Notes under the pieces: model-generated
The model's database searches: none
Told to the model about the DNA's origin: nothing
What the model saw: only the letters and a program-made list of their open reading frames with translations
Made by a program: the position numbers and the translations under genes
Assembly: GCA_963555995.3 (NCBI GenBank)
Contig: OY821641.1
Coordinates: 1,760,001-1,824,000, forward strand
Source: Vicinamibacteria bacterium
GTDB taxonomy: Bacteria > Acidobacteriota > Vicinamibacteria > Marinacidobacterales > Marinacidobacteraceae
Length of the DNA stretch: 64,000 bases
Direction: 5' to 3'
In this document: positions 8,488 to 61,323 of the stretch, piece after piece
How positions within the stretch are numbered: the first letter of the stretch is position 1
Layout of the letters: each line of letters opens with the position of its first letter

Positions 8488-8656
8488 CGGCTTGGAGCGC
8501 CGGCTTCAGCCGGCACAGCCCGCCACAGGCGGGCGGCGGGACGGACCTCGTTCGCCGGGATGGCGCGGCTGCGCGCGCCAATGCATCCGGGGCAGCAACG
8601 AAGCGCCCGCGGCCTGACAGGCCGCTGTGCCGGCCGAAGTCGGCGTTCCAGGCCGG
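8488..8656. repeat. REPIN-like element (inverted REP pair)
   Basis: CGGCTTGGAGCGCCGGCTTCAGCCGGCAC ... GTGCCGGCCGAAGTCGGCGTTCCAGGCCG. Confidence 0.75.
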
Positions 8657-11123: not shown

Positions 11124-11148
11124 CGGGAGCTACGGCGTGATCGGGCCA

Positions 11149-11328
11149 GCAGCCTGTGGTGGAACTGACGTGAGCACCGAGACGTCCGCTGGGCCTCGCT
11201 GACAAGGCGTGCGAGGGAGGAATACCGAGTGTATTTCGACCGAAGCGCAACGACGAGCGAGCCGAAGGCGAGCGTTCAGCGGGGATTCAGCGGGCGTCGA
11301 ATGCCGCGTGAGTTTCAGCACCGGCTGC
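11149..11328. mobile_element. Diverged copy of the ~181 bp MITE
   Basis: GCAGCCTGTGG...GCTGACAAGGCG..GAGGGAGGAATACC..GTGTATT..GACCGAA...CACCGGCTGC; overlaps the last codons of the ABC ATPase. Confidence 0.8.
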
Positions 11329-12088
11329 TCACGCCGTTCAGCGCCGCCGCCAGCCAGCCGCCGCGGTCTCCGGCAGCGGATCGGCCCTTGCCAGCCGTCG
11401 CCACGAAGTCCTCCACCGGCCCGGACGCGGTGACGGCGCCCTCCGCGAGAACGATCAGCCGGTCGGCGACCGACTCGATGGTGGCGGCCTCGTGAAGGCT
11501 CAGGATGACGGCCGCTCCGTCCCCGGCCGCCGCGCGAATGGCCGCCAGGGACCGGACCCGGGCCTCCGGGTCGAGCCCGGTGAGCGGTTCGTCGAGGACG
11601 AGCGCCCGGGGTTCGCCGAGCAGCGCCTGCGCCAGGGATACCCGGCGCCGGACACCCCGCGAAGCGCGGGCGGCGGGAATCGCCAGCCACTCCAGGAGCC
11701 CGACCGCCTCCGCCGTCCGCTGCGCCTCGCGACGGGCGCCCGCGCCGCCATACCCGGCGAGCACGGCGGCGTAGCGCAGGACGTCCCGCACCTTCAGACC
11801 CGCCGGAAACTCGTCTTCCTCCGCCAGGTATCCCAGAGCGCGGCGCGCCCGGCTGCGGCTGGCCGGCGTCTCCCCGAGGAGCGCCTCGCCCCGGTCAGGG
11901 GGCAGGAGCCCGGCCAGCAGCCGCAACGTGGTGGACTTGCCCGAGCCGTTCTTCCCCGCCAGCGCCACCACCTCCCCCGGCGCCACCGCGAAGCTCACCT
12001 CCCGCAGGACGGTCCGGCGGCGAAGCGCCAGCCCGAAACGTCCGGGCGCCGGATACGAAGCGGTCAGCCGGCGAGCGCGGATTTCCAA
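11315..12088 (-). CDS. ABC transporter ATP-binding protein (PilH-like)
   Basis: Walker A GKNGSGKST, degenerate signature ASRGV, Walker B LVLDEP, H-loop. Confidence 0.88.
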   Translation of the reverse strand: MEIRARRLTASYPAPGRFGLALRRRTVLREVSFAVAPGEVVALAGKNGSGKSTTLRLLAGLLPPDRGEALLGETPASRSRARRALGYLAEEDEFPAGLKVRDVLRYAAVLAGYGGAGARREAQRTAEAVGLLEWLAIPAARASRGVRRRVSLAQALLGEPRALVLDEPLTGLDPEARVRSLAAIRAAAGDGAAVILSLHEAATIESVADRLIVLAEGAVTASGPVEDFVATAGKGRSAAGDRGGWLAAALNGVSSRC

Positions 12089-12763: not shown

Positions 12764-12822
12764 AAGGATACGTCCTCCTTGGGACAGGTGTGGAACGGGC
12801 CGGTTGCCGACTTCACGGTCGC

Positions 12823-13095
12823 TAACCGCCGTTGGTGGAACTGGCGTGAGCACCGAGACGCCCGCTGGGTCTCGCTGACAAGGCGCGCGAGGGAGGAATA
12901 CCGGGTGTATTCCGACCGAAACGCAACGCAGAGCGCCTCGTAGAGGCGCGGTTCAGGCGGGATGCATCGGCGTTCGCGTCGTGAGCGGGGCGTGAGCCCC
13001 GCGCAGACCCCGGAGCGAGAGGGATAGGGGACGGGTTCACCCGGCTCCTATCCCTCTTGGCTCGGGAATGCCGCGTGACTTTGTCCACAGGCTGT
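12823..13095. mobile_element. MITE copy carrying a ~90 bp structured insertion, between pilC and pilA
   Basis: Same core as 52856 units; right end CCACAGGCTGT abuts pilC stop; extra hairpins at 12985-13002 and 13018-13057. Confidence 0.78.
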
Positions 13096-15611: not shown

Positions 15612-16148
15612 GTGTTCAACAATCCTTTTGGCTCATTTCACAACACCGTCGCCGAAGCAAAGGAAGAACGTGAACAACTCGACCGGCTGCTGACCGTTTC
15701 CACTCCGCGGGAACGGCTGCTCGTCGGGGCCATCGCTCTCCTGCTGCTGGGCTTCTCCGCCTGGCTCTTCCTGGGCGCCGTGTCCCGCAGCCTCGCGGTG
15801 GACGCCGTCGTGGTGGAGCCCGGCGGGACCCGGTCGCTGCAGGCGCTCGTCCGGATCGAACCCGGGATCGCGCCGCACATCAGGGCCGGGATGCCGGCGC
15901 GTATCGAACTGATCGTTGCCGACGGCGAAGCGGAGACACTGGCCGGAGAGATCACGACCATCTCCGCCGTTCCCCTGTCCGAGGGGCTGGGCGCGCTCGC
16001 CTCCGTCGCGGCCGTGTCCGCGTACCGCGTCCACATCGCGATCGAGGAGGGGCTCGCTCTCGCCCCCCGCGCGGGCCAGGAATGCCGGATCGTCATCGAA
16101 CTCGGCCGGCAGGCGCCCATCGCCCTGCTGCGAATGAGGCGCTTCTGA
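15612..16148 (+). CDS. NHLP/NHLM bacteriocin system secretion (adaptor-like) protein, short form
   Basis: 3' end of the 13068..16148 ORF from GTG 15612: EQLDRLLTVSTPR..TM..W.FLG, C-terminal IELGRQAPIALL; 178 aa, first gene of the export operon. Confidence 0.78.
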   Translation: MFNNPFGSFHNTVAEAKEEREQLDRLLTVSTPRERLLVGAIALLLLGFSAWLFLGAVSRSLAVDAVVVEPGGTRSLQALVRIEPGIAPHIRAGMPARIELIVADGEAETLAGEITTISAVPLSEGLGALASVAAVSAYRVHIAIEEGLALAPRAGQECRIVIELGRQAPIALLRMRRF

Positions 16149-16149
16149 C

Positions 16150-18360
16150 ATGCCGCCCCGCGCTCTGGGGGGAACCGGCGCCAAAGGCCCGCCGGACTCG
16201 CCAAAACAGCGCGTAGCCACGCCGATTCTGCTGCAGATGCACGCCTCGGAGTGCGGGGCCGCCTGCCTCGGGAGCGTCCTCGGCTACTTCGGCCGCTGGG
16301 TGCCGCTCACCGAACTGCGGGAGAAATGCGAGGTGAGCCGGGACGGGAGCAACGCCGCGAGCATCCTGCGCGCCGCCCGACACTACGGTCTCGAATGCGG
16401 TGGACTCAGCCTGCGCGGCGAGCAACTGAAACGGCTGGAGTTGCCGCTGATCCTGTTCTGGCAGTTCAGCCATTTCGTCGTCCTCGAGGGATTCGACGGC
16501 GGCAGCTTCTACCTCAACGACCCCTCCACGGGGCGACGCAAGCTCTCCGCCGACGAGTTCCATGGCGGCTACAGCGGCATCGCGCTTCGATTCAAGCGCG
16601 GCGACGGTTTCACCACCGGCGGCGAACCGCGCAGCCTGTTCCGGCAGTTGGGCGTGCTGCTCGCCGGATCCTGGAGCGTGCTCACCGGCCTGACTGCCTG
16701 CGCGCTCATGCTGACCCTGCTCGCGCTGGTCATTCCCGGAGTTCTCGGCGTTTTCGTGGACGACGTGCTGGAGAACCGGGGGCCCGTGGGCGGACTGGTG
16801 GCCGCCCTGCTGGGCGGCGGGATCCTGGTCTATGTCCTGTCCCTGCTCAAGCACCGCTTCCTGAAGCGGCTCGCCGTCCGGATTTCCGTGGCCGGCTACA
16901 GCCGGGGCGTGTCCCGGCTGCTGCGGTTGCCGGTTGCGTTCTTCGAGCACCGGTTGGTAGGCGACCTGACGGACCGGGTCTCGTCCATAGACCGGGTCGC
17001 GAAGAACCTGACGGACCAGTTCCTGGTGCTGCTCATTGACATGGCCATGAGCGCGGTGCTGCTCCTCGCCATGTTGGCCTACGACGGGTTGCTGACGCTG
17101 ATCGTGTTGGCCCTGGCGGTCCTCCACGGCGCGCTGGCCCACCTGCTCAACGGCGTCCAGGCCATTCGCACCCGAGCGATGCGGCGCGAACAGGGACTGC
17201 TGATCGGCGTCGGTATGCAGATGTTGGGTCATGCCGGCAACCTGCGCATGACGGGAGCGGACGACCGTTTCTTTGCGCGCTGGAGCGGTCAGCAGGCGCG
17301 TGAACTGCGCGCGCGACAACTCTGTGCGGAAGTGGGCGCCGTCCATGCCGCGCTTCCGGGGCTGGTCGCCGGACTGCGCAGTGCGGCGATCCTGGGCATC
17401 GGAGGGAGTCTGGTCCTCGACGGCGCCATGACCCTGGGGACGCTGGTCGGCTTCTATGTCCTGGCCGAGATGTTTCTGGCGCCCATCGGCCGCTTCCTGG
17501 AGTTCGCCGACGGGCGCCAGGCGCTCGAAACCGATCTGCAACGGCTGGACGACATCTCCAGGACCGAGGAAGATCCCGTCTTCCGCCGGCGAAGTCCGGA
17601 ATCGGAATCCATCCCCACGTTCCAGGGTCGGCTCCAACTGACCGGCCGGCTCGAACTGCGGGACATCACCTTCGGTTTCAACAGGGGCCGGCCACCCCTG
17701 ATCAAGAACTTCAACCTCGTGATCAAGCCCGGCCAGCGAGTCGCCGTGGTCGGTCCCAGTGGTTCCGGCAAATCAACCTTGGCGCGCCTGGTCTCGGGTA
17801 TCCATCAGCCCTGGTCGGGTGAAATCCTGTTCGATGGCCACCGGCGGGACGAGATTCCCGAGGAAGTGCTGCAGCAGTCCATTTCCATGGTGGATCAGGA
17901 GGTCGTGCTGTTTTCCGCGTCGCTGCGCGACAACATCACGCTGTGGAACCCGGCCGTTCCGGATGAAGCCGTCTTCGCGGCCACCCGGGATGCGCGGATC
18001 CATGACGAAATCCTGGTCAGGCCGCACGGGTTCGCGACCCTCGTTGAAGAAGGCGGCGCGAATTTCAGCGGCGGCCAGCGCCAACGACTGGAAATCGCGC
18101 GAGCGCTGGTGGGCCATCCGACGGTGCTCGTTCTGGACGAGGCGACCAGCGCCCTCGATGCGGCAACCGAGGAAGATGTGGACGATGCCCTGCGGCGACG
18201 GGGCGTCACCTGCCTGATCGTGGCCCACCGGCTGAGCACCGTGCGGGACTGCGACCAAATCATCGTGCTCGACAAGGGCGCCGAAGTGCAGCGCGGCACG
18301 CACGACGCCTTGATCGCCGATCTGGACGGCACGTATTCCAGGCTGGTCAGGACCGGCTGA
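16150..18360 (+). CDS. NHLP ABC transporter with C39 peptidase domain (PCAT)
   Basis: LQMHASECGAACL, HFVVLEG, YLNDP catalytic C/H/D; Walker A GPSGSGKST, FSGGQRQR, LVLDEATS. Confidence 0.95.
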   Translation: MPPRALGGTGAKGPPDSPKQRVATPILLQMHASECGAACLGSVLGYFGRWVPLTELREKCEVSRDGSNAASILRAARHYGLECGGLSLRGEQLKRLELPLILFWQFSHFVVLEGFDGGSFYLNDPSTGRRKLSADEFHGGYSGIALRFKRGDGFTTGGEPRSLFRQLGVLLAGSWSVLTGLTACALMLTLLALVIPGVLGVFVDDVLENRGPVGGLVAALLGGGILVYVLSLLKHRFLKRLAVRISVAGYSRGVSRLLRLPVAFFEHRLVGDLTDRVSSIDRVAKNLTDQFLVLLIDMAMSAVLLLAMLAYDGLLTLIVLALAVLHGALAHLLNGVQAIRTRAMRREQGLLIGVGMQMLGHAGNLRMTGADDRFFARWSGQQARELRARQLCAEVGAVHAALPGLVAGLRSAAILGIGGSLVLDGAMTLGTLVGFYVLAEMFLAPIGRFLEFADGRQALETDLQRLDDISRTEEDPVFRRRSPESESIPTFQGRLQLTGRLELRDITFGFNRGRPPLIKNFNLVIKPGQRVAVVGPSGSGKSTLARLVSGIHQPWSGEILFDGHRRDEIPEEVLQQSISMVDQEVVLFSASLRDNITLWNPAVPDEAVFAATRDARIHDEILVRPHGFATLVEEGGANFSGGQRQRLEIARALVGHPTVLVLDEATSALDAATEEDVDDALRRRGVTCLIVAHRLSTVRDCDQIIVLDKGAEVQRGTHDALIADLDGTYSRLVRTG

Positions 18361-21302
18361 TGCAGGACACGAGGCCGGCATACCCAACGCTGGCGGCACT
18401 CGCGGCTCGCGCGGGTACGTCCGTACCCTGCGCCGGCAACCTGCCGGTGAAACTCGACGACCCGGACGGCGTCTGGTTCATCGAACGGGGTTCGGTCCAT
18501 CTGTTCGTGGTCGAACTCGAGGACGGGGAGGAGTGCGCGGCGCCCCAACATCTGCTGCGTCGAGAAGCGGGCTGGCTGCTGCCGGGCGTCGCGCCGAGCG
18601 GAGGAGAAGATGACGAAGGCACGACGCTCAGCCTGATCGCCAAGGGGTTGCCGGGCACCCTGCTGAAGCGCCTGCCGGCGTCCCTGCTCTCGGAGCTGGA
18701 TCCGGCAGAACTGGCGGAACAGACGGACACCTGGTTGACCGCCGTCACCGACACGCTCGCCCGCTTCGCGGCCCGCCTGCCGCGGGCGACCGCGCTGGCC
18801 GAACCCGGCCGGACGCGGACCCTGGCGCCCGGCACGGTTTCCGTACGGCGGGGGGTGGTCTGGGTGTCCGGTCCGCCGCGCGGCGCCAGCCTGTTCATGG
18901 GGATCGTGGACCCGCTGGAATTCGCCGGGACGAGCGACCGGGAGGAAGCTCCGATGCCGTTGACGCGGACGAGCTGGCTCAGCCTGTTCGACGAGGCGAC
19001 CCTTGCCGGCGAATCCACCGCGTCCCTGGTGCGGCAAGGCATGCTGCTGCCCGCGCTCGCCGCCTTTCATGCGGTGGCGTTCTCCCTCGAACGCCACAAC
19101 CGGCGACTGGCCACGGTTGATGACGCGAATCTGGAACGCGCGCGGACGAGCAGTCGCCGCCGGGCCGCGAGGACGGCGCGGGAGCGGCTCTTCAACATCT
19201 ATGACCTTCCGACGGGCCGGGATGCCGGGGTCGAGGACAGGGCGCTGGCGGATGCCCTTCAGATCATCGGCCGCCGCGAAGGAATCGCGTTCCGGATTCC
19301 CGCGCGCTCAGCGCATTCGGATTCGCCGCTCAGCCTGTTGGACGTCCTCGATGCCTCCGGGGTCCGCGCCCGGCGCGTGCGCTTCAAGGCCGAGGGCGAC
19401 TGGTGGCACGGCGACAGCAACGCGCTGCTGGCGTTCCGAGCCGAGGACGGCCGGCCCGTAGCGCTCCTGCCGGGACTCTTCGGCCGCTACCGGGAAGTGG
19501 ATCCGGTCAGCAAGCGACGGGGCCGGATCAACGCGGACCGCGCCGCCGCGCTGGGCGAGGAAGCCTGGATGTTCTATCGGCCCTTCCCCTCGGGCAACGT
19601 CGAGCCGGCGGACCTGCTGCGAACGGCTCTCCATGGATCGGGCGTGGACCTCGCGCGGCTGGTGATCGCCGGGCTTCCCGGCGGTCTGATCAAGCTGGCG
19701 CCGGCGCTCGGGCTCGGATTCGTGGCGCACCAGGTCACGGCGGGCGGAACCGCCGGAGCGCTCTATGCCGTGGCCGCGACGGTGGCGGCGTTCGGCCTGC
19801 TCGGCGCGCTGCTCCACCTGCTGCAGAGCACGGCGATGATGCGGCTCGAGGGACGGTCGGCGTCGCGGGTGGAAGCCGCTTTCTGGGACCGCCTCATGCG
19901 GCTCTCGCCAAGCATCCTGCGGCGCCATCCGGCCGGCGACCTCGCCATGTCGGGAATGACGTTCCAGAACCTGCGCGACGGCCTGCGGGGGATCGTCGCC
20001 GACAGCCTGCTGTCGGTCCTTTTCCTGCTTCCGGTGCTCGGCGTCATCTTCTTCTACGACACCGGTCTCGGGGCCATTGCCCTCGGTTTCAGCCTGGTGT
20101 CGCTGCTGATCACCGCAGTCCTGGGCTGGCGCCAGATTGCGCCCTACGGGCGGATGGTCGCTACCGCCCGCCGCGTAGCCGGCCGGCTCTTCCAGATCGT
20201 GGGCGGGATCACCAAGCTGCGGGTGGAGAGCGCCGAAGGCTCGGCGTTCGCGGTCTGGGCGCAGGACTATCGCGAGCAGAAACGCGCGGAACTCGACCTG
20301 AGCGCGCTCGAAGGACACTCCCGAGCCTTCGGCGCCGCGCTTCCCTTTCTCGCCGGCGGGGTTCTGCTCTTCGCCGTGGTGGCGCTGGGCGACCGGAACG
20401 TCCCGGTCGGCGACTTCCTGGTCGTGTACACCGTCTTCATCGCTTTCCAGTCCGCGGTGGCCCAACTCGCCGAATCCTTCGGCGCCATCGCCGCCATGGC
20501 GCCGGCGTTCCGGCAGATGCGTCCCCTGCTCACCACGGTTCCCGAAACCGAGGGCGAGGGAGAGCCCGTTGACCACCTGGGGGGCGAGGTCCTCTTCGAC
20601 CGCGTTTCCTTCCGCTACGACCCGGACGGACCCCTGATTCTCGACGACGTCACCCTTCGCGCCCGTCCCGGCGAATTCGTCGCGATCACCGGTGAGTCCG
20701 GCGCGGGCAAGAGCACCCTGTTCCGGCTCGCGCTCGGCATTGACCGGCCCAGCGCCGGGGCCGTGTACTTCGACGGACGCGATCTGCGGCACCTGAACCT
20801 GAAGCAGGTGCGCCGGCAGATCGGCGCCGTACCGCAATCCGTCAAGCTCCATCCCCTCGACCTCTGGGACAACCTGGTCAGTCACCACGAAGGCGTGACG
20901 AACGAGGAAGTGTGGAAAGCGGTCCGGGTGGCCCAGGTCGAAGCCGAAATCAAGAGTATGCCCATGGGTCTGATGACCATGGTGGGCACCAGCGGGGCGG
21001 TCCTGTCGGGCGGCGAAAGCCAGCGCGTCACCATCGCTCGCTCGGTGATCGGCAGTCCGCGCATCATGCTGTTCGACGAGGCGACCAACTGGCTCGACAA
21101 CGAAAGCCAGGCAAAGGTCATGGAGAACCTCGCCGCCCTGACCTCCACGCGGCTCGTGATCGCCCACCGCCTGTCCACGCTGGAAGCGGCCGACCGCATC
21201 TACGTCCTGAAGGCCGGCAAGGTGGTCGAGAGCGGCTCCTTCACCGAACTCATGGAAGCCGAGGGAGCATTCCAGGAACTGATCAAGAGGCAGATCGCTT
21301 GA
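18360..21302 (+). CDS. Second NHLP ABC transporter subunit (cNMP-binding-like N-terminus, TM domain, ATPase)
   Basis: VWFIERGSVHLF, GVRARRVRF..DWW..D..ALLAF, GESGAGKST, LSGGESQR, FDEATNWLDNESQ; overlaps preceding stop. Confidence 0.92.
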   Translation: MQDTRPAYPTLAALAARAGTSVPCAGNLPVKLDDPDGVWFIERGSVHLFVVELEDGEECAAPQHLLRREAGWLLPGVAPSGGEDDEGTTLSLIAKGLPGTLLKRLPASLLSELDPAELAEQTDTWLTAVTDTLARFAARLPRATALAEPGRTRTLAPGTVSVRRGVVWVSGPPRGASLFMGIVDPLEFAGTSDREEAPMPLTRTSWLSLFDEATLAGESTASLVRQGMLLPALAAFHAVAFSLERHNRRLATVDDANLERARTSSRRRAARTARERLFNIYDLPTGRDAGVEDRALADALQIIGRREGIAFRIPARSAHSDSPLSLLDVLDASGVRARRVRFKAEGDWWHGDSNALLAFRAEDGRPVALLPGLFGRYREVDPVSKRRGRINADRAAALGEEAWMFYRPFPSGNVEPADLLRTALHGSGVDLARLVIAGLPGGLIKLAPALGLGFVAHQVTAGGTAGALYAVAATVAAFGLLGALLHLLQSTAMMRLEGRSASRVEAAFWDRLMRLSPSILRRHPAGDLAMSGMTFQNLRDGLRGIVADSLLSVLFLLPVLGVIFFYDTGLGAIALGFSLVSLLITAVLGWRQIAPYGRMVATARRVAGRLFQIVGGITKLRVESAEGSAFAVWAQDYREQKRAELDLSALEGHSRAFGAALPFLAGGVLLFAVVALGDRNVPVGDFLVVYTVFIAFQSAVAQLAESFGAIAAMAPAFRQMRPLLTTVPETEGEGEPVDHLGGEVLFDRVSFRYDPDGPLILDDVTLRARPGEFVAITGESGAGKSTLFRLALGIDRPSAGAVYFDGRDLRHLNLKQVRRQIGAVPQSVKLHPLDLWDNLVSHHEGVTNEEVWKAVRVAQVEAEIKSMPMGLMTMVGTSGAVLSGGESQRVTIARSVIGSPRIMLFDEATNWLDNESQAKVMENLAALTSTRLVIAHRLSTLEAADRIYVLKAGKVVESGSFTELMEAEGAFQELIKRQIA

Positions 21303-22606
21303 CGTCCATCAAGAAACCGACGGACGTCGCCGACTCTCTCCTCGCGAGAGCCGCCGAGGACAGCGACTTTCGCGGACGCCTGCTAGCGGAACCCAACGCG
21401 ACGGTGGAAACGGAACTCGGCGTGCGGCTTCCCGCCGGCCACGAGATTCACGTGCACGAGGAGTCCTATGCGGAGACCCACCTGGTGCTTCCGCCGCGCA
21501 GCAGACTCACCGCGGCCGAACGGCAGGAGGCGCAGACGGGCGCGGCGTCGCTCGCGTTTCTCAGGAAGACGCTCCACGACCCCGCGCCGCCGCTGCGTCC
21601 CCCGGCCCCCAGGCGGGCGTGGGCCCACCCGGGCGCGAGTCCCGCGGCCCTCGCGGAAGCGGCGCGGACGAGCATCCGCCGGGGTCTCGATTTCCTCGAG
21701 TCCACGACCGACGCGAACGGGGCGTTTCACTGCATCCGGTTCAACGTCGCCGATCCGGACATTCCACGGCATTTCGAACGGCCGCCCTTCGTTTCGGCCT
21801 TCTGCGCACTGGCCCTCGAACGCTGCGCCGACGCGCGGGCCCGGGCCATGTGCGCCGCCGCCCGGGCCTACCTGGCCGACACCATCGAACATCCCGGTTT
21901 GTGGCGGTACTACCGCCATCTCCCCCAGGACCTCGACAGCACGGCGCTCGCCTCCATGGTCACCGGGACCCACCCCTGGATCCTGCTGGGGAAGAACGTG
22001 CCGCCGATCCTGGCGAATCGCGACGAGGAAGGCCGTTTCCTGACCTGGGTGCTCGCGGCAGACGAACCGGACGTGGTGTCCACGTTCCGCATCGAAGCCG
22101 ACCCGGTGGTCAATGCGAACGTCATCGCCTACCTTGGCGACCATCCGGAAACCAGGGATGCGCGGCGCTGGCTGGAACGTCTCATCGCCGAAGGCAACGT
22201 CGAGGGCGCATCCAAGTGGTACCCCGACCGGGTCGCGACCTACTACGCGGCGGCGCGGGCGGCGGCGCGCGTCCGGCCGGCGCTGGACCCGCTGCGGCCG
22301 CACCTCGCGGACCGCATCCTGGAGCTCCGTGACGACCGGGGCGAGTTCGGCAACGTCCTGCAGACCGCCCAGGCGGTGTCGGCGCTCCACGACGTCGGTG
22401 GCCTGGAGCGCGTTGACGCGCATCGCCAGGTGGAAGCGCTGGTGGGTTCGCAACACGAGGACGGGAGTTGGCCGGAGCTGCTCGCGTTCGGTGACCAGAC
22501 GCTGAAGTGGGGCGCGGTAGGGCAGATCGGGCATGGGTCGGAAGCCGTGACCTCCGCGTTAAGCATCGAAGCGCTGGAGCGGCTCGTCGAAGTCCTGAAC
22601 GCTTGA
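21299..22606 (+). CDS. NHLP-leader domain fused to a class II terpene cyclase/prenyltransferase-beta-like (alpha/alpha barrel) domain
   Basis: Start re-called at TTG 21299 (TTGA overlap). N-terminal ~80 aa ARAAEDSDFRGRLLAEP..ELGV.LP....I.VHEE....HLVLPP aligns by eye with the precursor; then RRGLDFL, GLWRYY, DLDSTA, DPVVNANV, SQHEDGSWP (QW-like motif). Confidence 0.78.
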   Translation: MTSIKKPTDVADSLLARAAEDSDFRGRLLAEPNATVETELGVRLPAGHEIHVHEESYAETHLVLPPRSRLTAAERQEAQTGAASLAFLRKTLHDPAPPLRPPAPRRAWAHPGASPAALAEAARTSIRRGLDFLESTTDANGAFHCIRFNVADPDIPRHFERPPFVSAFCALALERCADARARAMCAAARAYLADTIEHPGLWRYYRHLPQDLDSTALASMVTGTHPWILLGKNVPPILANRDEEGRFLTWVLAADEPDVVSTFRIEADPVVNANVIAYLGDHPETRDARRWLERLIAEGNVEGASKWYPDRVATYYAAARAAARVRPALDPLRPHLADRILELRDDRGEFGNVLQTAQAVSALHDVGGLERVDAHRQVEALVGSQHEDGSWPELLAFGDQTLKWGAVGQIGHGSEAVTSALSIEALERLVEVLNA

Positions 22607-22612
22607 CCGCCT

Positions 22613-24922
22613 GTGGAAGACGTCACGCCCCGGCAAGGGATCCTCACCCGGACCACCCCCGCCGACCGGGGCCTCGTCAGGCTTCCGGCGCTGACGCCGC
22701 ATCTGGATTTCCGCGACATTGGCGAAGGGCGGACCCTGCTGGTCTCCGAATCGTTCAACACCCTGTTGCACGGTGAGCTGTTTGCCGCTCTCCTGCCGCT
22801 GCTCGACGGCCGCCGTTCGTGCGAGGAGATCGTCGCGGCCGTGGAGGGGACCCATGCCGCGGTGGATGTCCTCACCGCGCTGGCTTCGCTGTCCGCCAGG
22901 GGTTACGTCGTCTCGGGCGACCATGCGCTGGACCGGCGCCGGGCGGCCTACTGGTCGTCGCTCGGCGCGTCGCCGCGCTGGGTCGAGGCGCGGCTGGCGG
23001 AGTCGCGCCTCGCGGTCGAAGGCGACGACGGCCGGTTCACCCGGCGCCTCGAGGAGAACGGCGCCGCGCTCGGGCCCGGGGATCCCGACCTCACCGTGGT
23101 GGTCTGCGACGACTACCTCGAACCGCGCCTCGCCGAGGTGAATCGGCGCCGGCTCGAGGCGGGAGCGCCGTGGGCCGTGGTGCGGCCGCGCGGCATGGAG
23201 GCGCTGTTCGGGCCCGTCTTCCGGGCGGATCGTCGAGGGCCCTGCTGGGATTGTCTCGCCCATCGTCTCGGCGCTCATCGGGAAGTCCACCGTTTTCTCC
23301 GGAGCGTCGCGGGCGAGAAAGCCGCCTTCAGGCCCTTCGCCGCCCAGCCCGCCGTTCTCGAAGCGCTCTACGGGCTGATCGCGGCGGAGATCGTCAAGTG
23401 GATCGTGCTGCGCGACGCGGCGCCGATCCACGACCACGCGCTCACCGTGAACGTCGGCGCCTTCGGAACTTCGCGACACCCGGTGCGCCGCCGGCCGCAG
23501 TGCCGGGCCTGTGGTGATCCGGCGCTCCATCGCCCGGACCGGCCGCCGGTTCCGCTCGCTCTGCAACCGAGCCCCAAGACGCATCGCACGAGCGGCGGCG
23601 CGCGCTCCGTGGCGCCGGAAGTCACCCTGGCGAAGTACGGCCACCTCGTGAGCCCGATCAGCGGGGTGGTGACCTGGTTGCGGCGCACCACGGACGCGAG
23701 CGATTCCTGGCTGCACGTCCACTGGGCCGGCAGCAACCCGGCCATCACGAGCCGGAGCCTGAGTTCGCTCCGGCGCAGCCTGCGCAGCAAGAGCGCCGGC
23801 AAGGGCAGCACCGCGGAGCAATCCCGGGTGAGCGCGCTGTGCGAAGCCATCGAGCGCACTTCGGGCGCCCATGCCGGTGACGAGATCCGTACCCGCGGGC
23901 GGTTCACCGAGTTCGCCGGAGAAGACGAAGCGATCCATCCCAACGACGTGCAACTGTTCAGCGACCACCAGCTCGACAACGCGGCGGACATCAACGCGAA
24001 GGGCCATCCTTACAACATCGTGCCGCCGCTGTTCGACCCCGACGCCCGCATCGCCTGGACCCCGGTGTGGTCGCTGACGCAGCAGCGGCACCGCTTTCTG
24101 CCGACGTCCATGCTCTATTCCATGCCGGCCGAAGCGCGCGGGCCGCAAGACCTGATCGCCGATTCGAACGGCTGCGCCGCGGGCAACACGGTGGAAGAAG
24201 CGATCCTGCAGGGCTTTTTCGAACTGGTCGAGCGCGATGCGTTCGCCATCTGGTGGTACAACCGGCTGCGCGTACCGGCGGTTGACCTGTCCAGCTTCGA
24301 CGACGACTACCTCGCCTCGGCCCCGGACTACTACGCCCGTCGCGAGAGGGAGGTGTGGGTGCTCGACGTCACCTCGGATCTCGGCGTTCCCGCGTTCGTC
24401 GCGCTCTCGCGCCGGCCGTCCGCCCCCACCGAGGACATCATCTACGGCGCCGGCGCCCACGACGACCCGCGCATCGCGGCGCTGCGGGCGATCTGCGAAC
24501 TGAACCAGTGCCTCACCTGGCTGCCGGACCCCGGGAAGCGCGACGGCCGGCCCACGATTGATGACCCGCTGGCGCTTCGGTGGTGGAAGACCGGGCGGCT
24601 CGCGGACTGTCCCTGGTTGGCGCCGGCCGCCAGCCAGCCGCCCTCGACGGCCTCCCGGTATGCGGCGGTCCCGTCAACGGATACCCGCGAGGACGTGGAG
24701 CGGTGCCGCGCGCTCGTCGAAGCCAGGGGCATGGAGTTCCTGGTGCTGGACCAGACCCGGCCCGACATCGGAATGCCGGTGGTGCGGGTCATCGTGCCGG
24801 GGATGCGCCATTTCTGGGCGAGGTTCGCTCCCGGGCGCCTCTACGACGTGCCGGTCAGCATGGGCCGCCGGGAACATCCGCTTGCCGAAGCGGATCTGAA
24901 CTCCGTCCCGGTGATCGCGTGA
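22613..24922 (+). CDS. srpC: Fused TOMM cyclodehydratase (leader-binding/E1-like + YcaO), SrpC-like
   Basis: GPCWDCL and PQCRACG, HLVSPISGVV, SAGKG, ALCEAIERTS, SNGCAAGNTVEEAILQGFFELVERDA, VVRVIVPGMRHFW, C-terminal NSVPVIA; srp name recalled from literature, orthology untested. Confidence 0.92.
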   Translation: MEDVTPRQGILTRTTPADRGLVRLPALTPHLDFRDIGEGRTLLVSESFNTLLHGELFAALLPLLDGRRSCEEIVAAVEGTHAAVDVLTALASLSARGYVVSGDHALDRRRAAYWSSLGASPRWVEARLAESRLAVEGDDGRFTRRLEENGAALGPGDPDLTVVVCDDYLEPRLAEVNRRRLEAGAPWAVVRPRGMEALFGPVFRADRRGPCWDCLAHRLGAHREVHRFLRSVAGEKAAFRPFAAQPAVLEALYGLIAAEIVKWIVLRDAAPIHDHALTVNVGAFGTSRHPVRRRPQCRACGDPALHRPDRPPVPLALQPSPKTHRTSGGARSVAPEVTLAKYGHLVSPISGVVTWLRRTTDASDSWLHVHWAGSNPAITSRSLSSLRRSLRSKSAGKGSTAEQSRVSALCEAIERTSGAHAGDEIRTRGRFTEFAGEDEAIHPNDVQLFSDHQLDNAADINAKGHPYNIVPPLFDPDARIAWTPVWSLTQQRHRFLPTSMLYSMPAEARGPQDLIADSNGCAAGNTVEEAILQGFFELVERDAFAIWWYNRLRVPAVDLSSFDDDYLASAPDYYARREREVWVLDVTSDLGVPAFVALSRRPSAPTEDIIYGAGAHDDPRIAALRAICELNQCLTWLPDPGKRDGRPTIDDPLALRWWKTGRLADCPWLAPAASQPPSTASRYAAVPSTDTREDVERCRALVEARGMEFLVLDQTRPDIGMPVVRVIVPGMRHFWARFAPGRLYDVPVSMGRREHPLAEADLNSVPVIA

Positions 24923-24931
24923 GGAGGCGAC

Positions 24932-26044
24932 ATGCAACTTGACGCGGCGGTCGCGCTGACGGAGAACCGCCTTGCGGAGGAGGGCGGCGTCCTGAGTGAC
25001 CTGCTCCGGCACTTCCGAGACCGGGTCTCACCGGTTCTCATCGGCGATCCGGAGTGGGAACTCGTCCTCGAGCGCGCCGGAAGACTTCCGATCACGATGG
25101 GCGCGCTTCCCTTCGGCTTCGAACTGCCGCTGCACGCGCAGGCGCCAAGGGCGGACCTGGGGGTCTCGCTGGCGAGCGGGACCAGAACGGCGGCGTTCTT
25201 CCTGGAACGCGCCCGGGACCCGAAGGACGCGACCGCGAGAGCGATTGGCCGGCTGTTCCGCCGGATGGATGCCGAGGACTCGCCGCTACGCGAGATCGTC
25301 GGCCGCAAGCTGATGCTGGAGTACGACATCGGCCCCGGACGGGGCGACGACGACTCGCTTCCCGGCATGTTCCTGCGGCCCGGGGAACGCCCGATCCTCG
25401 GCGCCCGCGGTCAGGTGAACGATGTCCGGCTGGTGGTGGACGCGCTCGCCTCCTGCGTCGGTTGGGAACTGACCGGCGCCGAGCGGCGAAACGTCGAGCG
25501 GGTGTACCTGGCGCAGCCCGAAGACACCCGCATGGATTCGTTCGGGGTGTTTCCCTCCCGCTCGCGGACGATCCGCCTCGCGGTGATGGGGTTCCAGTCA
25601 CCGGCGGCGTTCGCTTCCTGGCTCGAAGCGATCGGGTGGCCGGGTCGGCTGTCGGCCGCCAATTCCGTGATCGAACGCTTCCGGGAACGCGCGCACGTCG
25701 TCCGAACCGGGGCGAACCTCGACGTGCGGGATGCGGGTGTCGGCCCGACCCTCGGCCTGACGCTCATCGTCAAGCAGCGGTACACGAAAGGTTCCCGGTA
25801 CTGGCTCGACGGCCTCACCGACTGGGAACCGTTCCTGGAGGCCCTTGGCCATGAAGAACTCGTGTTTTCGGACAAGCTGGCCGCGCTCGCCGGCTGGGTT
25901 TCGAAGCCGACGACCCTCTTCGCGAAGTCCGGGCGCTATGTCCTGCTACGCGGAATCCATCACATCAAACTGGTCGTCTCCGAGAACCAGCTTCGCCAGG
26001 CCAAAGCCTACGTGTTCCTGGTGCTTTCCGGCGGAATCCCCTAG
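24932..26044 (+). CDS. Hypothetical RiPP tailoring protein, candidate PT-barrel (ABBA-like) prenyltransferase
   Basis: GAGGAGG RBS, co-linear with YcaO; alternating helix/beta-hairpin pattern GFELPL..ADLGV, LMLEYD, SFGVFPSR..IRL, NLDV..GPTLGL, HHIKL..AKAYVF; CDS is secure, function is inference. Confidence 0.5.
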   Translation: MQLDAAVALTENRLAEEGGVLSDLLRHFRDRVSPVLIGDPEWELVLERAGRLPITMGALPFGFELPLHAQAPRADLGVSLASGTRTAAFFLERARDPKDATARAIGRLFRRMDAEDSPLREIVGRKLMLEYDIGPGRGDDDSLPGMFLRPGERPILGARGQVNDVRLVVDALASCVGWELTGAERRNVERVYLAQPEDTRMDSFGVFPSRSRTIRLAVMGFQSPAAFASWLEAIGWPGRLSAANSVIERFRERAHVVRTGANLDVRDAGVGPTLGLTLIVKQRYTKGSRYWLDGLTDWEPFLEALGHEELVFSDKLAALAGWVSKPTTLFAKSGRYVLLRGIHHIKLVVSENQLRQAKAYVFLVLSGGIP

Positions 26045-26131
26045 AAACGGTGCGAGCCTCGGAGCGCCGTCAGCGCGGGTTTGCTGTGAAAATGCAGTCC
26101 CGGCGAAACGTCAGCCAGCGCAATGGGGCCA

Positions 26132-26337
26132 CCGGCCTGGAACGCCGGCTTCAGCCGGCACCCGCTGCGCGACAGCACAGCGCACGGCGCGACGTTGACC
26201 TGCGGGGTGGTTCTTTTTCTGCGCCGACCTGAACGGACCGGACGTTCCGGTAATAGCGTTCCGTACGGCCGAACCGCTACGCATCGCGCGCGGGCCTCCG
26301 GCCGGCGGTGCCGGCTGAAGCCGGCGTTCCAAGCCGG
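26132..26337. repeat. REPIN-like element inside the RiPP island
   Basis: CCGGCCTGGAACGCCGGCTTCAGCCGGCAC ... GTGCCGGCTGAAGCCGGCGTTCCAAGCCGG, ~30 bp inverted termini. Confidence 0.8.
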
Positions 26338-26450
26338 GCACGCCAAGTGACCGAACGGCCTCACGCTCTCTGCGAGCCGTGGCCCGGATGCCAGCGCGAG
26401 GCTGGCGCTCCTACCCGGTGAGGAAGCCGGCTAGCTGCCGGTTGTCGAAC

Positions 26451-26702
26451 CTACCAGCAGCAGCAAAGGCCGGCCGAGATCGCTTCGAGCTGCTCCTCGG
26501 TGATGTTCGGGTCCGGCGGTAGCGCGAGATGCACCGTCTGCATGTCGCTCTCGTGGACCTGGATGCTCATCGAATCCGGAATCGTGATGCCGAGTTCCGC
26601 GCTGATCGCGCCCTTCGGATCTGCCAGAAGCTGACGCCGGAAATCCGCGTCGAGGGCGGACTTGTCGACAATCTGCTGCAACATTTCGTCGCCGTTTCTC
26701 AT
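26451..26702 (-). CDS. srpE: NHLP-leader (proteusin) RiPP precursor, core LCCCW, SrpE-like
   Basis: DADFRRQLLADPKGAI.ELG..IP....VHE....HLALPP...TEEQLEAISAG|LCCCW; AAGGAGG RBS; double-glycine-type AG cleavage site. Confidence 0.95.
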   Translation of the reverse strand: MRNGDEMLQQIVDKSALDADFRRQLLADPKGAISAELGITIPDSMSIQVHESDMQTVHLALPPDPNITEEQLEAISAGLCCCW

Positions 26703-26743
26703 GGTGTGTCCTCCTTGATGTCAGGCGCGGGCCAACCGCGCCA

Positions 26744-26771
26744 CGTATAACAGGATTGAATAGTAACACAA
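26744..26771 (-). promoter_or_regulatory. Putative sigma70-type promoter of the precursor gene
   Basis: AT-rich patch; minus strand TTGTGT-16 nt-TATACG with TGn extension, ~42 nt upstream of ATG. Confidence 0.4.
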
Positions 26772-27014
26772 CGCTGTGGGAACGTCTGGTGAACCGCAAC
26801 CGCGGGCCTTCGCTTCCCGTGCCCGGGCCGGCGGTGAGGGACCGTCCGGCCTCCCGCCGCGCCCGAGCCCGCCTCCGGCAAACGACCGCCCGGCGCCGCC
26901 TCCGTGACCCGAAGGGCGATGGTGCTAGTGTGGTGCCCCGGAAATGGCGCACGCAGCACATCCGGGCATCCCGCGCGAGGGTCCACTGGCCGAACCCCGG
27001 GGAAGGCGTCGAGG

Positions 27015-28289
27015 GTGATCCAACCGGGCAGCAACTCGCTGCGGAAGATCGCGGTCATCGGGCGAGGAACCGCAGGGTCGCTCGCGGCCGCCGCGGTGAC
27101 CCGTCTTCACCCTGACGGCGACCACGAGCTGCACCACATCCATGACTCGCGCATTCCGGTCATCGGAGTGGGTGAAGGCAGTTGGCCGAGCCTGGTCGGG
27201 CACCTGCAGCAACTGACGGCCCTGCCCCACGAAACGGTCCAGCAGCGCCTGCAGGGAACGCGCAAGTACGGCGTGGCCTTTGAGGGGTGGGGACGGCGCA
27301 ATCGGGACTTCACCCACTACTTCACGCCGCAACAGGTCTCCTACGCCTACCACCTGTCCGCCGACCTGCTGGCGGAGCTGCTGCACGAGAGCACGCGCGC
27401 GCGCCACGTCAACGCGAAAGTGCTCGGGATCACCCGGGTGGACGGCGGCGCCGAGGTCGAATTCGAGGATCGGGCCCCGGAGCGCTACGACCTGGTCTTC
27501 GATGCCCGCGGGTTTCCCCGTGACCTGGACCCCGACCGGCACATCCCAATTTCCTTCATCCCGACGGACACCGCCGTCATCCGCCGCTGTCCGGCGATCG
27601 TCGGGGACGGGCGGGACGGCCCGGTCCTCCAGCACACCTATACCCGCGCGGTGGCGCGCCCGCACGGCTGGATCTTCGTCATCCCGCTCGTGGCGCACAC
27701 GTCCTACGGGTACATCTTCAACCGCGACGTATCCGGCCTCGCCGAAGTCGAAGCGGACTTCGACGCGTTCCTCGAAGCCGATGGCGCGCCGGAGTTCGAG
27801 CAGCGCGCCGTCATCCCGTTTCCCAATTTCGTCCACCGGCAGATCTACGACGGCGCGGTGGCCCGCATCGGAAACCGGGCGGCCTTCATGGAACCGCTCG
27901 AAGCCACCGCGATCGTGTCCGCCCAGTTCCAGATCGGGATGGTCCTGCAGACCCGCCTGAACCGTCCGGTCGAGCATCTCGAGCGCGACGCGCCGGTGAT
28001 CAACCGGTTTCTCGTGAACGAGATGCTCGCCTACGGCCTGTTCGTCGGCTGGCACTACTCCTGCGGCTCCCGCTACGACAGCGGCTTCTGGCGCTACGCT
28101 CGCGACCAGGCCTGGCCGAGGCACCGCCAGACGGCGGACCCCGAGGCGGTGGGTTGCGCCGCGCTCCGCAAGTTCGACGCAATGATCGAGTTGCTGAACC
28201 GGCCCGTCATCGCCAGGGCCGACTGGGATCGGATGTGCGCGGTCCCTCTCACCAGCTACGCCCAGATGTCCCAGGGTCTGGGCTGCTGA
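27015..28289 (+). CDS. srpI: Flavin-dependent tryptophan-halogenase-like enzyme (peptidyl-Trp halogenase, SrpI-like)
   Basis: IAVIGRGTAG FAD motif, IGVGEG, TRKYGV (catalytic Lys position), GWIFVIP, AFMEPLEATAI; start re-called at GTG 27015; divergent from precursor. Confidence 0.88.
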   Translation: MIQPGSNSLRKIAVIGRGTAGSLAAAAVTRLHPDGDHELHHIHDSRIPVIGVGEGSWPSLVGHLQQLTALPHETVQQRLQGTRKYGVAFEGWGRRNRDFTHYFTPQQVSYAYHLSADLLAELLHESTRARHVNAKVLGITRVDGGAEVEFEDRAPERYDLVFDARGFPRDLDPDRHIPISFIPTDTAVIRRCPAIVGDGRDGPVLQHTYTRAVARPHGWIFVIPLVAHTSYGYIFNRDVSGLAEVEADFDAFLEADGAPEFEQRAVIPFPNFVHRQIYDGAVARIGNRAAFMEPLEATAIVSAQFQIGMVLQTRLNRPVEHLERDAPVINRFLVNEMLAYGLFVGWHYSCGSRYDSGFWRYARDQAWPRHRQTADPEAVGCAALRKFDAMIELLNRPVIARADWDRMCAVPLTSYAQMSQGLGC

Positions 28290-30095: not shown

Positions 30096-30698
30096 GTGCC
30101 CAGCGAGGATTCCGGCGGTCCCGCCGCGGTCCGGCGCCAGGACCCGCAGGCCACGGAGGGTGGGCGCGATCCGGTCTCCCGGCGGGCCGCCGCCATCGAG
30201 GCCATCCTGATGGACGTGGACGGGGTCCTGACCGACGGCACCTTCGAGCCGGGCGACGAGGACGCCGGAATCCCCGAGCGGAAGCGTTTCCACTCCCGGG
30301 ACGGCCTGGGCCTCGTGATGGCGAAGAAGAGCGGCCTGCGCCTCGGTTTCGTGACCGGCCGCCGCTCCGGAACCGTGAGGGGGCGCGCCGCGGAACTGGA
30401 GCTCGACTATCTCCGCGAAGGCTGCTTCGACAAGGGTCCGGCGTTCGACGAGGCCTGCGCCTCCTTCGGCCTGCTGCCGGAGCAGGTCGCCTTCGTGGGT
30501 GACGACGTGCAGGACCTGCCGGCGCTTCGCAAGGCCGGCTTCGCCGCCGCCCCCGCCGACGCCCATCCCGCCGTCCTCGACTGCGTCCACTTCGTCGCCG
30601 ACGCTCCGGGGGGGCGGGGCGCCGTCCGTCAGGTCATCGAGCGGATCCTGGAGGCTCGCGGGCTGCTCGACGCCGCGCTGTTTCGGTTCTGGGGCTAG
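30096..30698 (+). CDS. kdsC: KdsC-family HAD phosphatase (KDO-8-phosphate phosphatase)
   Basis: MDVDGVLTDG, KRFHSRDG, VTGRRS, FVGDDVQD, GGRGAVR; start uncertain (GTG 30096). Confidence 0.88.
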   Translation: MPSEDSGGPAAVRRQDPQATEGGRDPVSRRAAAIEAILMDVDGVLTDGTFEPGDEDAGIPERKRFHSRDGLGLVMAKKSGLRLGFVTGRRSGTVRGRAAELELDYLREGCFDKGPAFDEACASFGLLPEQVAFVGDDVQDLPALRKAGFAAAPADAHPAVLDCVHFVADAPGGRGAVRQVIERILEARGLLDAALFRFWG

Positions 30699-30881
30699 CA
30701 GCCTGTGGATAAAGTGACGTGAGCGCCGAGGCGGGCGAGGCGCCCGGCTGACAAGGCGCGTGAGGGAGGAATACCGGGTGTATTTCGACCGAAACGCAAC
30801 GCAGAGCGCCGCAAAAGCGGCGCGGTTCAGCCGGGATGCATCGCCCGCCGAACGCCGCGTGACTTTGTCCACAGGCTGCTA
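30696..30881. mobile_element. Complete ~182 bp MITE flanked by CTAG/TA at both ends
   Basis: CTAGCAGCCTGTGGATAAAGTGACG ... CGTGACTTTGTCCACAGGCTGCTAG; left TAG is the kdsC stop codon. Confidence 0.88.
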
Positions 30882-30924
30882 GCAGGCGTTACCGCGCCGT
30901 GAGGGGCGGAGTAGGGTTGCGCCG

Positions 30925-30977
30925 TGCGCGGCGCGGAGCGCCGCGGTGCCGGTCTGGAGACCGGCGTTCCAAGCCGG
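30925..30977. repeat. Solo REP-like unit
   Basis: Near-identical to 298-351. Confidence 0.75.
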
Positions 30978-52690: not shown

Positions 52691-52853
52691 GTCGTTCTCC
52701 CGGAGTCGCAGCCCCGACGGATAGCAGTTGCCGGCGCCAGCAGGCGCCGAACCGAATGAGTGTACGGGAACCCCCGTCCGCGGCAAAACCGCGCGCCGCC
52801 GCAGCCGCGCACGACCGGGATCGTTCCGGCCCCGAGATTCTCGCGGTGGTTGT

Positions 52854-53404
52854 TAACAGCCTGTGGTGAAACCCACGTGAGCGCCGAGACGGGTGAGGCG
52901 CCCGGCTGACAAGGCGCGTGAGGGAGGAATACCGGGTGTATTCCGACCGAAACGCAACGCAGAGCGCCTCGGAGAGGCGCGGTTCAGCCGGGATGCATCG
53001 CCCGTCGAACGCCGCGTGGGTTTTGCCACAGGCTGTTAGCAGCCTGTGGTGAAACCCACGTGAGCGCCGAGACGGGTGAGGCGCCCGGCTGACAAGGCGC
53101 GTGAGGGAGGAATACCGGGTGTATTCCGACCGAAACGCAACGCAGAGCGCCTCGGAGAGGCGCGGTTCAGCCGGGATGCATCGCCCGTCGAACGCCGCGT
53201 GGGTTTTGCCACAGGCTGTTAGCAGCCTGTGGTGAAACCCACGTGAGCGCCGAGACGGGTGAGGCGCCCGGCTGACAAGGCGCGTGAGGGAGGAATACCG
53301 GGTGTATTCCGACCGAAACGCAACGCAGAGCGCCTCGGAGAGGCGCGGTTCAGCCGGGATGCATCGCCCGTCGAACGCCGCGTGGGTTTTGCCACAGGCT
53401 GTTA
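52854..53404. mobile_element. Three head-to-tail copies of a 181 bp MITE separated by TA (183 bp period)
   Basis: CAGC at 52857, 53040, 53223; each unit CAGCCTGTGGTGAAACCCACG ... CGTGGGTTTTGCCACAGGCTG; copies appear identical apart from the first base. Confidence 0.9.
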
Positions 53405-59434: not shown

Positions 59435-59480
59435 CGGCTTGGAACGCCGGTCTCCAGACCGGCACCGCGGCGCTCCGCGC
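59435..59480. repeat. Solo REP-like unit (inverted)
   Basis: Reverse complement of 30925-30977. Confidence 0.72.
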
Positions 59481-59540
59481 CCGACGCAACCCCACCCGCA
59501 ACAAGGGAGTTCCCGCCCCGCCGAATAGACTCCGAGAGCC

Positions 59541-61075: not shown

Positions 61076-61323
61076 CCGGCTTGGAGCGCCGGCTTCAGCC
61101 GGCACCGCGGGCCGCAGGTCCGCGGATGTCGTGTCGCTGTTTGCGGTGATGGGCCGGAAACCGCGCGCTGTCGCGCGGGGCAGCGTCGTGCAGTCCGCTG
61201 CGCTGCGCGCAGCGGGTGCCGGCTGAAGCCGGCGTTCCAAGCCGGTGCGCCATGCGGCTACTCAGCCATTTGCGGTTTCGCTGCGCTGCGCGCAGCGGTG
61301 CCGGTCTGAAGACCGGCGGTCCC
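61076..61323. repeat. REPIN-like element plus an extra REP unit
   Basis: Inverted pair 61076-61245 and third unit GTGCCGGTCTGAAGACCGGCGGTCCC at 61298-61323. Confidence 0.8.

Follow-up and report, generated by a model that had tools for sequence, protein, structure and literature searches.

The window analysed here, a 64,000-nucleotide stretch of a Vicinamibacteria genome (GenBank assembly GCA_963555995.3, contig OY821641.1, positions 1,760,001 to 1,824,000 of the forward strand), carries between positions 15612 and 28289 a gene cluster for a peptide that is made by the ribosome and modified after translation (RiPP). By its sequence features, the cluster is a member of the published srp family, with an NHLP precursor, a YcaO cyclodehydratase and an SrpI-type tryptophan halogenase. 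Two further genes, encoding proteins of 370 and 435 residues, recur with these three in related loci, and we argue that they would prenylate the peptide and cyclise the attached chain. An earlier interpretation of the same DNA, made without database searches (the sequence-only reading), had named eight genes in this interval; all are found as intact open reading frames (ORFs) in the ORF list and its translations, at the positions given below.

The plus strand opens with a GTG-started gene (15612..16148) for a HlyD-like export adaptor of 178 residues, which by sequence appears to be a short adaptor since the match to TIGR03794 (E 8.7e-4) spans residues 21-78 only. It is followed by a C39 peptidase-containing ATP-binding cassette (ABC) exporter, or PCAT (16150..18360; PF03412 E 1e-31, PF00664, PF00005), whose TIGR03796 score (E 7e-247, 821 bits) lies just below the cut-off of 853. 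The translation of this exporter contains ECGAAC, HFVV and NDP stretches, and it is predicted to cut the precursor after Ala-Gly and to export the core. Next come a second NHLP-system ABC exporter subunit (18360..21302; TIGR03797 E 1.8e-202, 674 bits against a cut-off of 709) and the 435-residue protein (21299..22606), which joins an NHLP-like domain (residues 9-81) to a class II terpene-cyclase-like domain of the single-domain kind, with the motifs D211-x-D213, Y308 and a QW motif at 385-391. A fused leader-binding and YcaO cyclodehydratase resembling SrpC (22613..24922; PF02624 E 8e-97, PF21084, and TIGR03604 and TIGR03882, both over cut-off) precedes the gene of the 370-residue protein (24932..26044), an ABBA-fold (alpha-beta-beta-alpha) aromatic prenyltransferase-like protein that is without a Pfam or NCBIfam match and was assigned through the Atlas, a structure model and fold searches.

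Since these six genes overlap by 1 and 4 nucleotides or are separated by gaps of 1, 6 and 9 nucleotides only, they likely form one operon. The precursor gene (26451..26702, minus strand, 83 residues) converges with this block and the halogenase gene (27015..28289, plus strand, 424 residues) diverges from the precursor, so that both lie outside the six-gene operon. The single operon proposed by the sequence-only reading thus stands for the six plus-strand genes and has to be given up for the other two.

The srp clusters, with SrpE, SrpC and SrpI, were reportedly described by Nguyen et al. in JACS in 2021. The window precursor matches TIGR03793 (E 1.6e-18) and ends in AG-LCCCW-stop, an LCCCW core after a Gly-type cleavage site; the YcaO protein is a cyclodehydratase with a leader-binding domain (PF02624, TIGR03604, TIGR03882); the halogenase (PF04820 E 2.6e-44) has a GxGxxG motif, K84 and a PQQVS loop at 105-109, at the SrpI positions when counted from 27015. 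A GTG at 27015 is most likely its start, because homologues align from that residue and the SrpI numbering is then reproduced; the longest ORF, starting at 26904, was rejected on the same grounds. Published SrpE has the core LCCCW and the leader stretch NLTEEQL at 66-72, and SrpI has the catalytic K84 and the loop P105/Q106/Q107/V108/S109 (PMC10858898). The best Protein Data Bank (PDB) match of the window halogenase is 5uao (E 2e-24), which is MibH (PMC10858898). In the window leader the stretch at 66-72 reads NITEEQL, so that the L(X)4L position 67-72 is I67-L72; Ile is usual there among 35 aligned precursors, whereas published SrpE has Leu. The C-terminal Trp is invariant in SrpE-type cores. 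SrpC forms thiazolines and SrpI brominates the indole at C6, the latter only while the leader is attached (PMC10286304). The genes that recur in related loci include no azoline oxidase found in the analysis, so that thiazolines are expected here as well. The membership in srp put forward by the sequence-only reading is therefore upheld by the LCCCW precursor, the YcaO protein and the SrpI-type halogenase residues, together with the spread over many phyla described below; the window copy differs from many relatives in being without the AlkB-type, MMPL, LolA-like and Rieske genes.

The linkage of the two enzyme genes to srp clusters was followed in two surveys. Genomes of GTDB were searched with the cyclase as anchor, the best 80 of 152 matches being retained and genes counted up to 10 kb away from it. 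Since some loci nearly duplicate one another and related genomes lack independence, all linkage figures are counts and not statistics. The loci come from metagenome-assembled genomes of Pseudomonadota, Acidobacteriota, Gemmatimonadota, Nitrospirota, Nitrospinota, Latescibacterota, Binatota and others. The prenyltransferase gene accompanies the cyclase in 73/80 of them and in all 52 with full flanks. The corresponding figures for all 80 and for the 52 full-flank loci are 61 and 48 for the precursor, 69 and 48 for the YcaO gene, 53 and 42 for the halogenase, and 60 and 41 for a gene in which an AlkB-type oxygenase is fused to a further domain; the HlyD-like adaptor gene is present in 63 of the 80. 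Of the SrpE-type precursors, 60/61 end in LCCCW and one in LSCCW. Across lineages the same gene set is retained in differing order, and the mean pairwise identities of the prenyltransferase and the cyclase (72% and 73%) are close to that of the YcaO protein (74%).

A survey of metagenomes anchored on the precursor, in which many contigs are short, gave 29 loci: 25 with LCCCW cores, 3 with LCCWW and 1 without a precursor. Among the 25 LCCCW loci the prenyltransferase was seen in 18 and the cyclase in 12; the prenyltransferase occurs in 14/14 precursor-anchored loci that show a YcaO gene, and both enzymes in 8/8 LCCCW loci with full 10-kb flanks. Its recurrence in dozens of genomes, spread over many phyla, puts the arrangement far beyond what chance would give. 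The two genes are conserved core genes of srp and not the extra genes that they had been taken for; a local addition was rejected, both recurring with LCCCW clusters across loci. Co-occurrence with LCCCW precursors in other genomes, on which the sequence-only reading had staked its proposal, is thus found in both surveys. The precursor was met in 1/301 sampled genomes of the window's phylum, namely the window's own genome, a patchy spread that would fit horizontal transfer within a habitat. A match to the prenyltransferase profile occurred in 1/401 sampled genomes of another phylum; the two samples added few further contexts.

The sequence and profile of the 370-residue protein gave no useful match in PDB, Pfam or NCBIfam. 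It has 918 relatives among 7996 scored candidates, with 456 cluster representatives at E <=0.001, and the nearest Atlas clusters are Trp_DMAT (0.91) and DUF5838 and PTase_Orf2 (both 0.89), the recognition value being lower than is usual for known families. An alignment-based model from 98 sequences (mean predicted local distance difference test, pLDDT, 94.9; predicted template modelling score 0.93) consists of repeated alpha-beta-beta-alpha units that close into a prenyltransferase barrel; a single-sequence model had a pLDDT of 36.7 and was not used. Foldseek returned prenyltransferases as all 39 of the matches listed (best E 2e-5, TM score ~0.5). In the VIA structure search, ranks 1-19 are all prenyltransferases with Z from 16.4 to 10.3, rank 20 falling to Z 5.7; the top match is MpnD (4yla; Z 16.4, root-mean-square deviation (rmsd) 4.5, 295 residues aligned), and the closest folds are mostly indole prenyltransferases. 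As modelled, the protein has the ABBA aromatic prenyltransferase fold. Of the 98 family sequences, 86-97 retain each of the residues E64, D75, E130, D132, R210, R215, H344, K346, K358 and Y360, and E64, R215, H344, K346, K358 and Y360 sit on predicted strands. From general knowledge of ABBA enzymes, we take these conserved acidic, basic and Tyr residues to be putative donor and acceptor sites. The suggestion that this protein is a prenyltransferase has accordingly gained a fold, through the confident model and its top matches, and its activity is still a prediction.

The 435-residue protein combines two parts. Its N-terminal domain, of which the sequence-only reading made no mention, matches the NHLP family TIGR03793 at residues 9-71 (E 5e-12). 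At the equivalent of the cleavage site G81 and A78 are invariant, with Arg at position -7 in 78/81 sequences and Thr at -2 in 64/81; the L(X)4L motif is therefore lost, and the leader-like domain is probably not cleaved. The catalytic part falls with SQHop_cyclase_C and AstC-like_C clusters in the Atlas (0.91-0.94). PF13243 matches 26/27 aligned family members, the window protein at E 4e-4 and below the curated cut-off. Against PDB, a profile of 27 sequences found drimenol synthase (9mhs, E 5e-6) and a 365-residue cyclase (8paj, E 1.7e-4); MstE was not among its 16 matches at E <=10. An alpha6-alpha6 barrel may be expected from profile and language-model evidence. Conservation across the family is higher in the catalytic domain (0.85) than in the leader-like domain (0.75).

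Comparison with the HAD-TCbeta drimenol synthase AsDMS (9mhs, 9m7d), in which D331, D333 and Y427 are each essential (PMC12365925), allows the active site to be read; the 9mhs alignment, with an offset of 10, agrees with the residue numbers of that paper. D331, D333 and Y427 align with D211, D213 and Y308, and F509 with F397. D211 and D213 are present in 81/81 sequences, Y308 and F397 in 80/81, the exception being a truncated gene. The D-x-D acid, the activating Tyr and the QW repeat characteristic of class II monodomain cyclases are thus all in place, in agreement with the terpene-cyclase-like assignment of the sequence-only reading. The diphosphate ligands of AsDMS are replaced (Y373 by W250, Y426 by W307, R425 by K306); R380 corresponds to E266 while R378 is kept as R264, once the D-x-x-V-x-x-N motif is re-registered by eye, and F518 corresponds to H412. 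By sequence profile, the enzymes share a single class II beta domain, and they differ in that the 435-residue protein has no HAD phosphatase domain, bears an NHLP-like N-terminus and has Trp for the diphosphate-binding tyrosines. By its residues, the acid machinery is intact and the head-group site remodelled. The lost diphosphate ligands would therefore fit a head group other than a diphosphate, as expected for a prenylated aromatic substrate.

Prenyltransferase-cyclase maturases of RiPPs, NctPC and ChrPC, were reportedly described by Hubrich et al. in Chem in 2024. They attach cyclised isoprenoids to Trp, NctPC being an ABBA prenyltransferase joined to a monodomain class II cyclase and using a C20 chain (PMC13290415). 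The window is predicted to encode the same two activities, and action on a peptide Trp is proposed here by analogy; those maturases are single fusion proteins, whereas the window has two separate genes, as do the 73 loci in which both occur, and the window cyclase carries an NHLP-like domain and would act on a thiazoline-containing brominated pentapeptide. The mpp lanthipeptide cluster of Moorena producens, compared by description only, likewise unites a brominase, an ABBA prenyltransferase, an annotated terpene synthase (MppD) and an oxygenase in one RiPP cluster, its product being cryptic (PMC11791876). No activity of MppD was found in the literature searched. MppC depends on the leader and geranylates Trp at C5 (PMC12715784). 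The mpp system differs in its lanthionine in place of thiazolines, its Nif11 leader, and the placing of bromination on Trp80 and of prenylation on Trp82. The compound class, a cyclised isoprenoid on a peptide Trp, is already described, and the suggestion that such a hybrid might be undescribed has to be withdrawn in view of NctPC, ChrPC and mpp.

The novelty that may remain concerns the srp family itself. According to the preprint bioRxiv 10.1101/2023.06.09.544420, srp clusters are ubiquitous and highly transcribed in sponge microbiomes and their ecological role is elusive. In its available text and in those of PMC10286304, PMC10858898 and PMC9426513, only three genes of the cluster are treated; no prenyltransferase or terpene cyclase is assigned to srp there, 'prenyl' occurring only in one reference title. 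Among the matches listed from the open-access literature there was no such assignment, nor a leader-fused cyclase or a thiazoline-bromoindole-terpene product; the 2021 paper of Nguyen et al. and its supplement may already annotate both genes.

Distant relatives of the prenyltransferase extend the tie to RiPPs. All three examined on cyanobacterial plasmids adjoin RiPP precursors, two of them with Trp at or near the C-terminus. One from Pseudanabaena stands beside LanM and a Nif11 precursor ending in PPIKW, and one from Acaryochloris is a broken gene next to a Nif11 precursor ending in RYWH. The third, on a plasmid of Nostoc sp. UHCC 0926 (L116:897-10552), lies in an unannotated RiPP cluster with two Nif11 and two NHLP precursors and, by reading of translations, LanM-like and radical-SAM-like ORFs. 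The prenyltransferase family is thus tied to RiPPs, and Trp is not the sole possible acceptor.

On these grounds, the following route is put forward, to which we assign a probability of about 0.6: formation of thiazolines, bromination at indole C6, prenylation of the Trp, cyclisation and export would yield a small peptide-meroterpenoid. Following the reported chemistry of the srp orthologues, the LCCCW core would acquire three thiazolines and a 6-bromo-Trp while bound to the leader. The ABBA-fold protein would then draw a C10 or C15 donor from the host pool and place its chain on an unoccupied position of the Trp indole, possibly C5 by analogy with MppC. D213, activated by Y308, would protonate the distal alkene of the attached chain, giving perhaps a terpene of one or two rings, which for a C15 chain would be drimane-like. 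The fused leader-like domain may serve as a permanent docking module and not as a substrate, and the PCAT would cleave at Ala-Gly and export the product, whose lipid part an AlkB-type oxygenase encoded elsewhere in the genome may oxidise. Prenylation of the Trp, the chain length and cyclisation are what we infer; the prenylation and cyclisation steps are supported by the fold, the conserved residues, the acid pair with its Tyr, the linkage, the leader-like domain, the RiPP precursors beside the three cyanobacterial plasmid relatives and the precedents of NctPC and MppC. That the peptide carries an isoprenoid of some kind is very probable. More tentative, and rather less than an even bet, is the fullest version of the proposal: a tri-thiazoline pentapeptide whose one indole bears both the bromine at C6 and a cyclised terpene, probably of the drimane type, made by a new leader-associated ABBA family and a cyclase docking through an uncleavable copy of the leader, shared by sponge symbionts of many phyla, with none of this yet in print.

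Several observations weigh against the proposed route. The identity of the 370-residue protein to solved prenyltransferases is 7-16% at an rmsd of 4-5 Å, so that donor and acceptor are not readable from the fold match, and the Pfam prenyltransferase families match none of the 98 family members. The cyclase assignment is drawn from sequence profiles with a best E of 5e-6, and the activities of both enzymes are predictions from sequence and model. The single core Trp would have to bear both the bromine and the prenyl chain, in contrast to the separate Trp residues used in mpp. The four precursors detected in the cluster of Nostoc sp. UHCC 0926 have cores without Trp, and for another relative (L115) no precursor or cyclase was detected within ~10 kb. 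Two precursor-anchored LCCCW loci (L093 and L094, whose downstream flanks measure 5 kb and 1.7 kb) and two LCCWW loci with full flanks (L104 and L105, possibly one organism) showed no prenyltransferase, cyclase or YcaO gene.

The alternatives differ in how much of the route they keep. A prenylated and cyclised chain might sit off the Trp ring, as in linear cyanobactins, attached either to the N-terminal amine that is exposed once the leader is gone or to some other heteroatom; there is only one Trp and SrpI already brominates it, one family member sits with the Trp-less precursors of Nostoc, and ABBA peptide prenyltransferases accept many residues (PMC12715784). We consider this improbable, given that the nearest folds are mostly indole prenyltransferases and that the C-terminal Trp never varies in SrpE-type cores; moreover, the PCAT is expected to remove the leader in the course of export, so that a cytoplasmic enzyme would have little time to act. 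The chain could also stay linear or be hydrated only, the 435-residue protein being a scaffold, a leader decoy or a hydratase. Its leader-like domain would suit such a role, as would the modest cyclase match, the absence of MstE from the 16 PDB matches and the His in place of AsDMS F518. An acid pair, an activating Tyr, a YY pair and F397 invariant across phyla are not expected of a pure scaffold, and the stronger conservation of the catalytic domain over the leader-like one points the same way, making an uncyclised chain unlikely.

Less probable again is a separate small-molecule meroterpenoid, built without the precursor from free Trp, an indole or a prenyl diphosphate, or a route in which free farnesyl diphosphate (FPP) is cyclised before transfer, as by drimenol synthase. 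In its favour, the top structural matches take free Trp or a small indole as substrate, free FPP is the substrate of the best cyclase match, AsDMS R378 and R425 may have their counterparts in R264 and K306, and L115 lacks a detected precursor. Translational coupling to the YcaO gene and the exporters, the fused NHLP-like domain and the near-perfect linkage to LCCCW cores speak for a peptide substrate, however, and free FPP as the cyclase substrate is disfavoured by the loss of both diphosphate-binding tyrosines, and also because drimenyl diphosphate is non-allylic and on general chemical grounds a poor donor for an ABBA enzyme. Finally, the ABBA-fold protein might be an inactive, repurposed barrel and the product a brominated tri-thiazoline with other tailoring: its identity to characterised enzymes is low and a shared fold shows no function. 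With R215, H344, K346, K358, Y360, E64 and D132 kept in 87-97 of the 98 members, down to ~25% identity, and a partner cyclase that needs a prenylated substrate, this appears very unlikely.

The prenyl donor would come from the host. The window genome has two PF00348 genes, one IspA-like, with a Tyr five residues before the first aspartate-rich motif, and one of the long-chain type. By the usual rule, the IspA-like gene presumably yields a C15 product. With this pair of synthases, a C10 or C15 chain is more likely than C20, a soft preference drawn from sequence. A prenyl diphosphate synthase encoded in the cluster was rejected, as the gene clusters that recur across the 80 loci do not include one, single-locus ORFs not having been screened.

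The product formula of the sequence-only reading, otherwise in line with the route proposed here, is probably incomplete, given the AlkB-type oxygenase gene in most of the cyclase-anchored loci. It encodes a di-iron membrane desaturase/hydroxylase fused to a GlnE-like domain (for example L064:11388-13784) and is missing from the cluster in the window. Outside the cluster, the window genome has two copies, both with histidine boxes (G000:C1:1218150-1220636 and G000:C1:1377479-1379989; 50% and 47% identity). In a quick tree, in which one of these two has a long row, both fall together with copies that are linked to clusters. A copy elsewhere was also found in 5/5 other genomes whose clusters lack it, and the oxygenase may act in trans. 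An MMPL/SSD transporter, a LolA-like protein and a 409-residue protein (29, 18 and 15 of the 80 loci) are companions consistent with export of a lipophilic product; none of the three was found in the window genome by tblastn.

If prenyltransferase and cyclase are indeed what the two genes encode, the brominated tri-thiazoline is no more than an intermediate. Searches of sponge extracts should then look for a lipophilic mass shifted by +136, +204 or +272 Da, perhaps oxidised, and the srp product question, now five years old, becomes directly testable by adding two more genes to the existing Escherichia coli system. The pair would also offer prenylation and cyclisation at a C-terminal Trp for peptide engineering, and would be an unusual case of a tailoring enzyme bearing a copy of the leader of its own substrate.

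Some further observations concern the same enzymes in other settings. On the Pseudanabaena galeata plasmid, a lanthipeptide cluster (L082:2757-13577) has a domain of the prenyltransferase family fused to a 2-oxoglutarate-Fe(II) oxygenase, and the gene after it is matched weakly by the cyclase profile (E 0.001 in a set of 7 proteins). A partial protein (P0372, MGI9311175.1) has the last 73 residues of a class II cyclase domain running in frame into a prenyltransferase of the 370-residue family, and may be a natural cyclase-prenyltransferase fusion or an artefact of gene calling. Another candidate fusion, P0424 (691 residues), was rejected since its N-terminus binds flavin adenine dinucleotide instead. 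A 1218-residue 'tetratricopeptide repeat protein' among glycosyltransferases on a plasmid of Nostoc sp. C052 (L081:8027-11683) includes a complete class II cyclase-like domain in which the acid motif is present (profile E 2e-36).

Precursors of related type were also noted. A second NHLP precursor occurs in six cyclase-anchored loci, and such second precursors have the cores WCCCGN, WCCCGQ or MCCCGI (L037:18567-18857, L040, L055, L056, L057, L058, L100). Orphan SrpE-like precursors (LCCCW in L093 and L094, LCCWW in L104, L105 and L106), near which no YcaO, prenyltransferase or cyclase gene lies, have a Rieske oxygenase gene following them in some cases.

In the window, the GC content of the block (0.67-0.71) is slightly below that of most flanking 2-kb windows (0.70-0.77), and the genes on either side of it, judging by their translations, are presumably PilT-like and CTP synthase-like. 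A sigma-70-like promoter was not found at the cluster, and there are 3 terminator-like sites, fewer than in shuffled sequences. Between the convergent 3' ends of the prenyltransferase and precursor genes lies a repetitive extragenic palindromic (REP)-like inverted repeat (26132..26337) with 31-nt arms that are 97% complementary. It is a dispersed element of the genome and not specific to the cluster, with further copies at 8488-8656 and 61076-61245: REP-like palindromic elements form inverted intergenic pairs at 8488-8656, 26132-26337, 30930-30976, 59435-59481 and 61076-61326. A further dispersed repeat of ~196 nt is present in six copies, three of them in tandem at a spacing of 183 nt (11141-11336, 12817-13012, 30690-30885 and 52848-53409).

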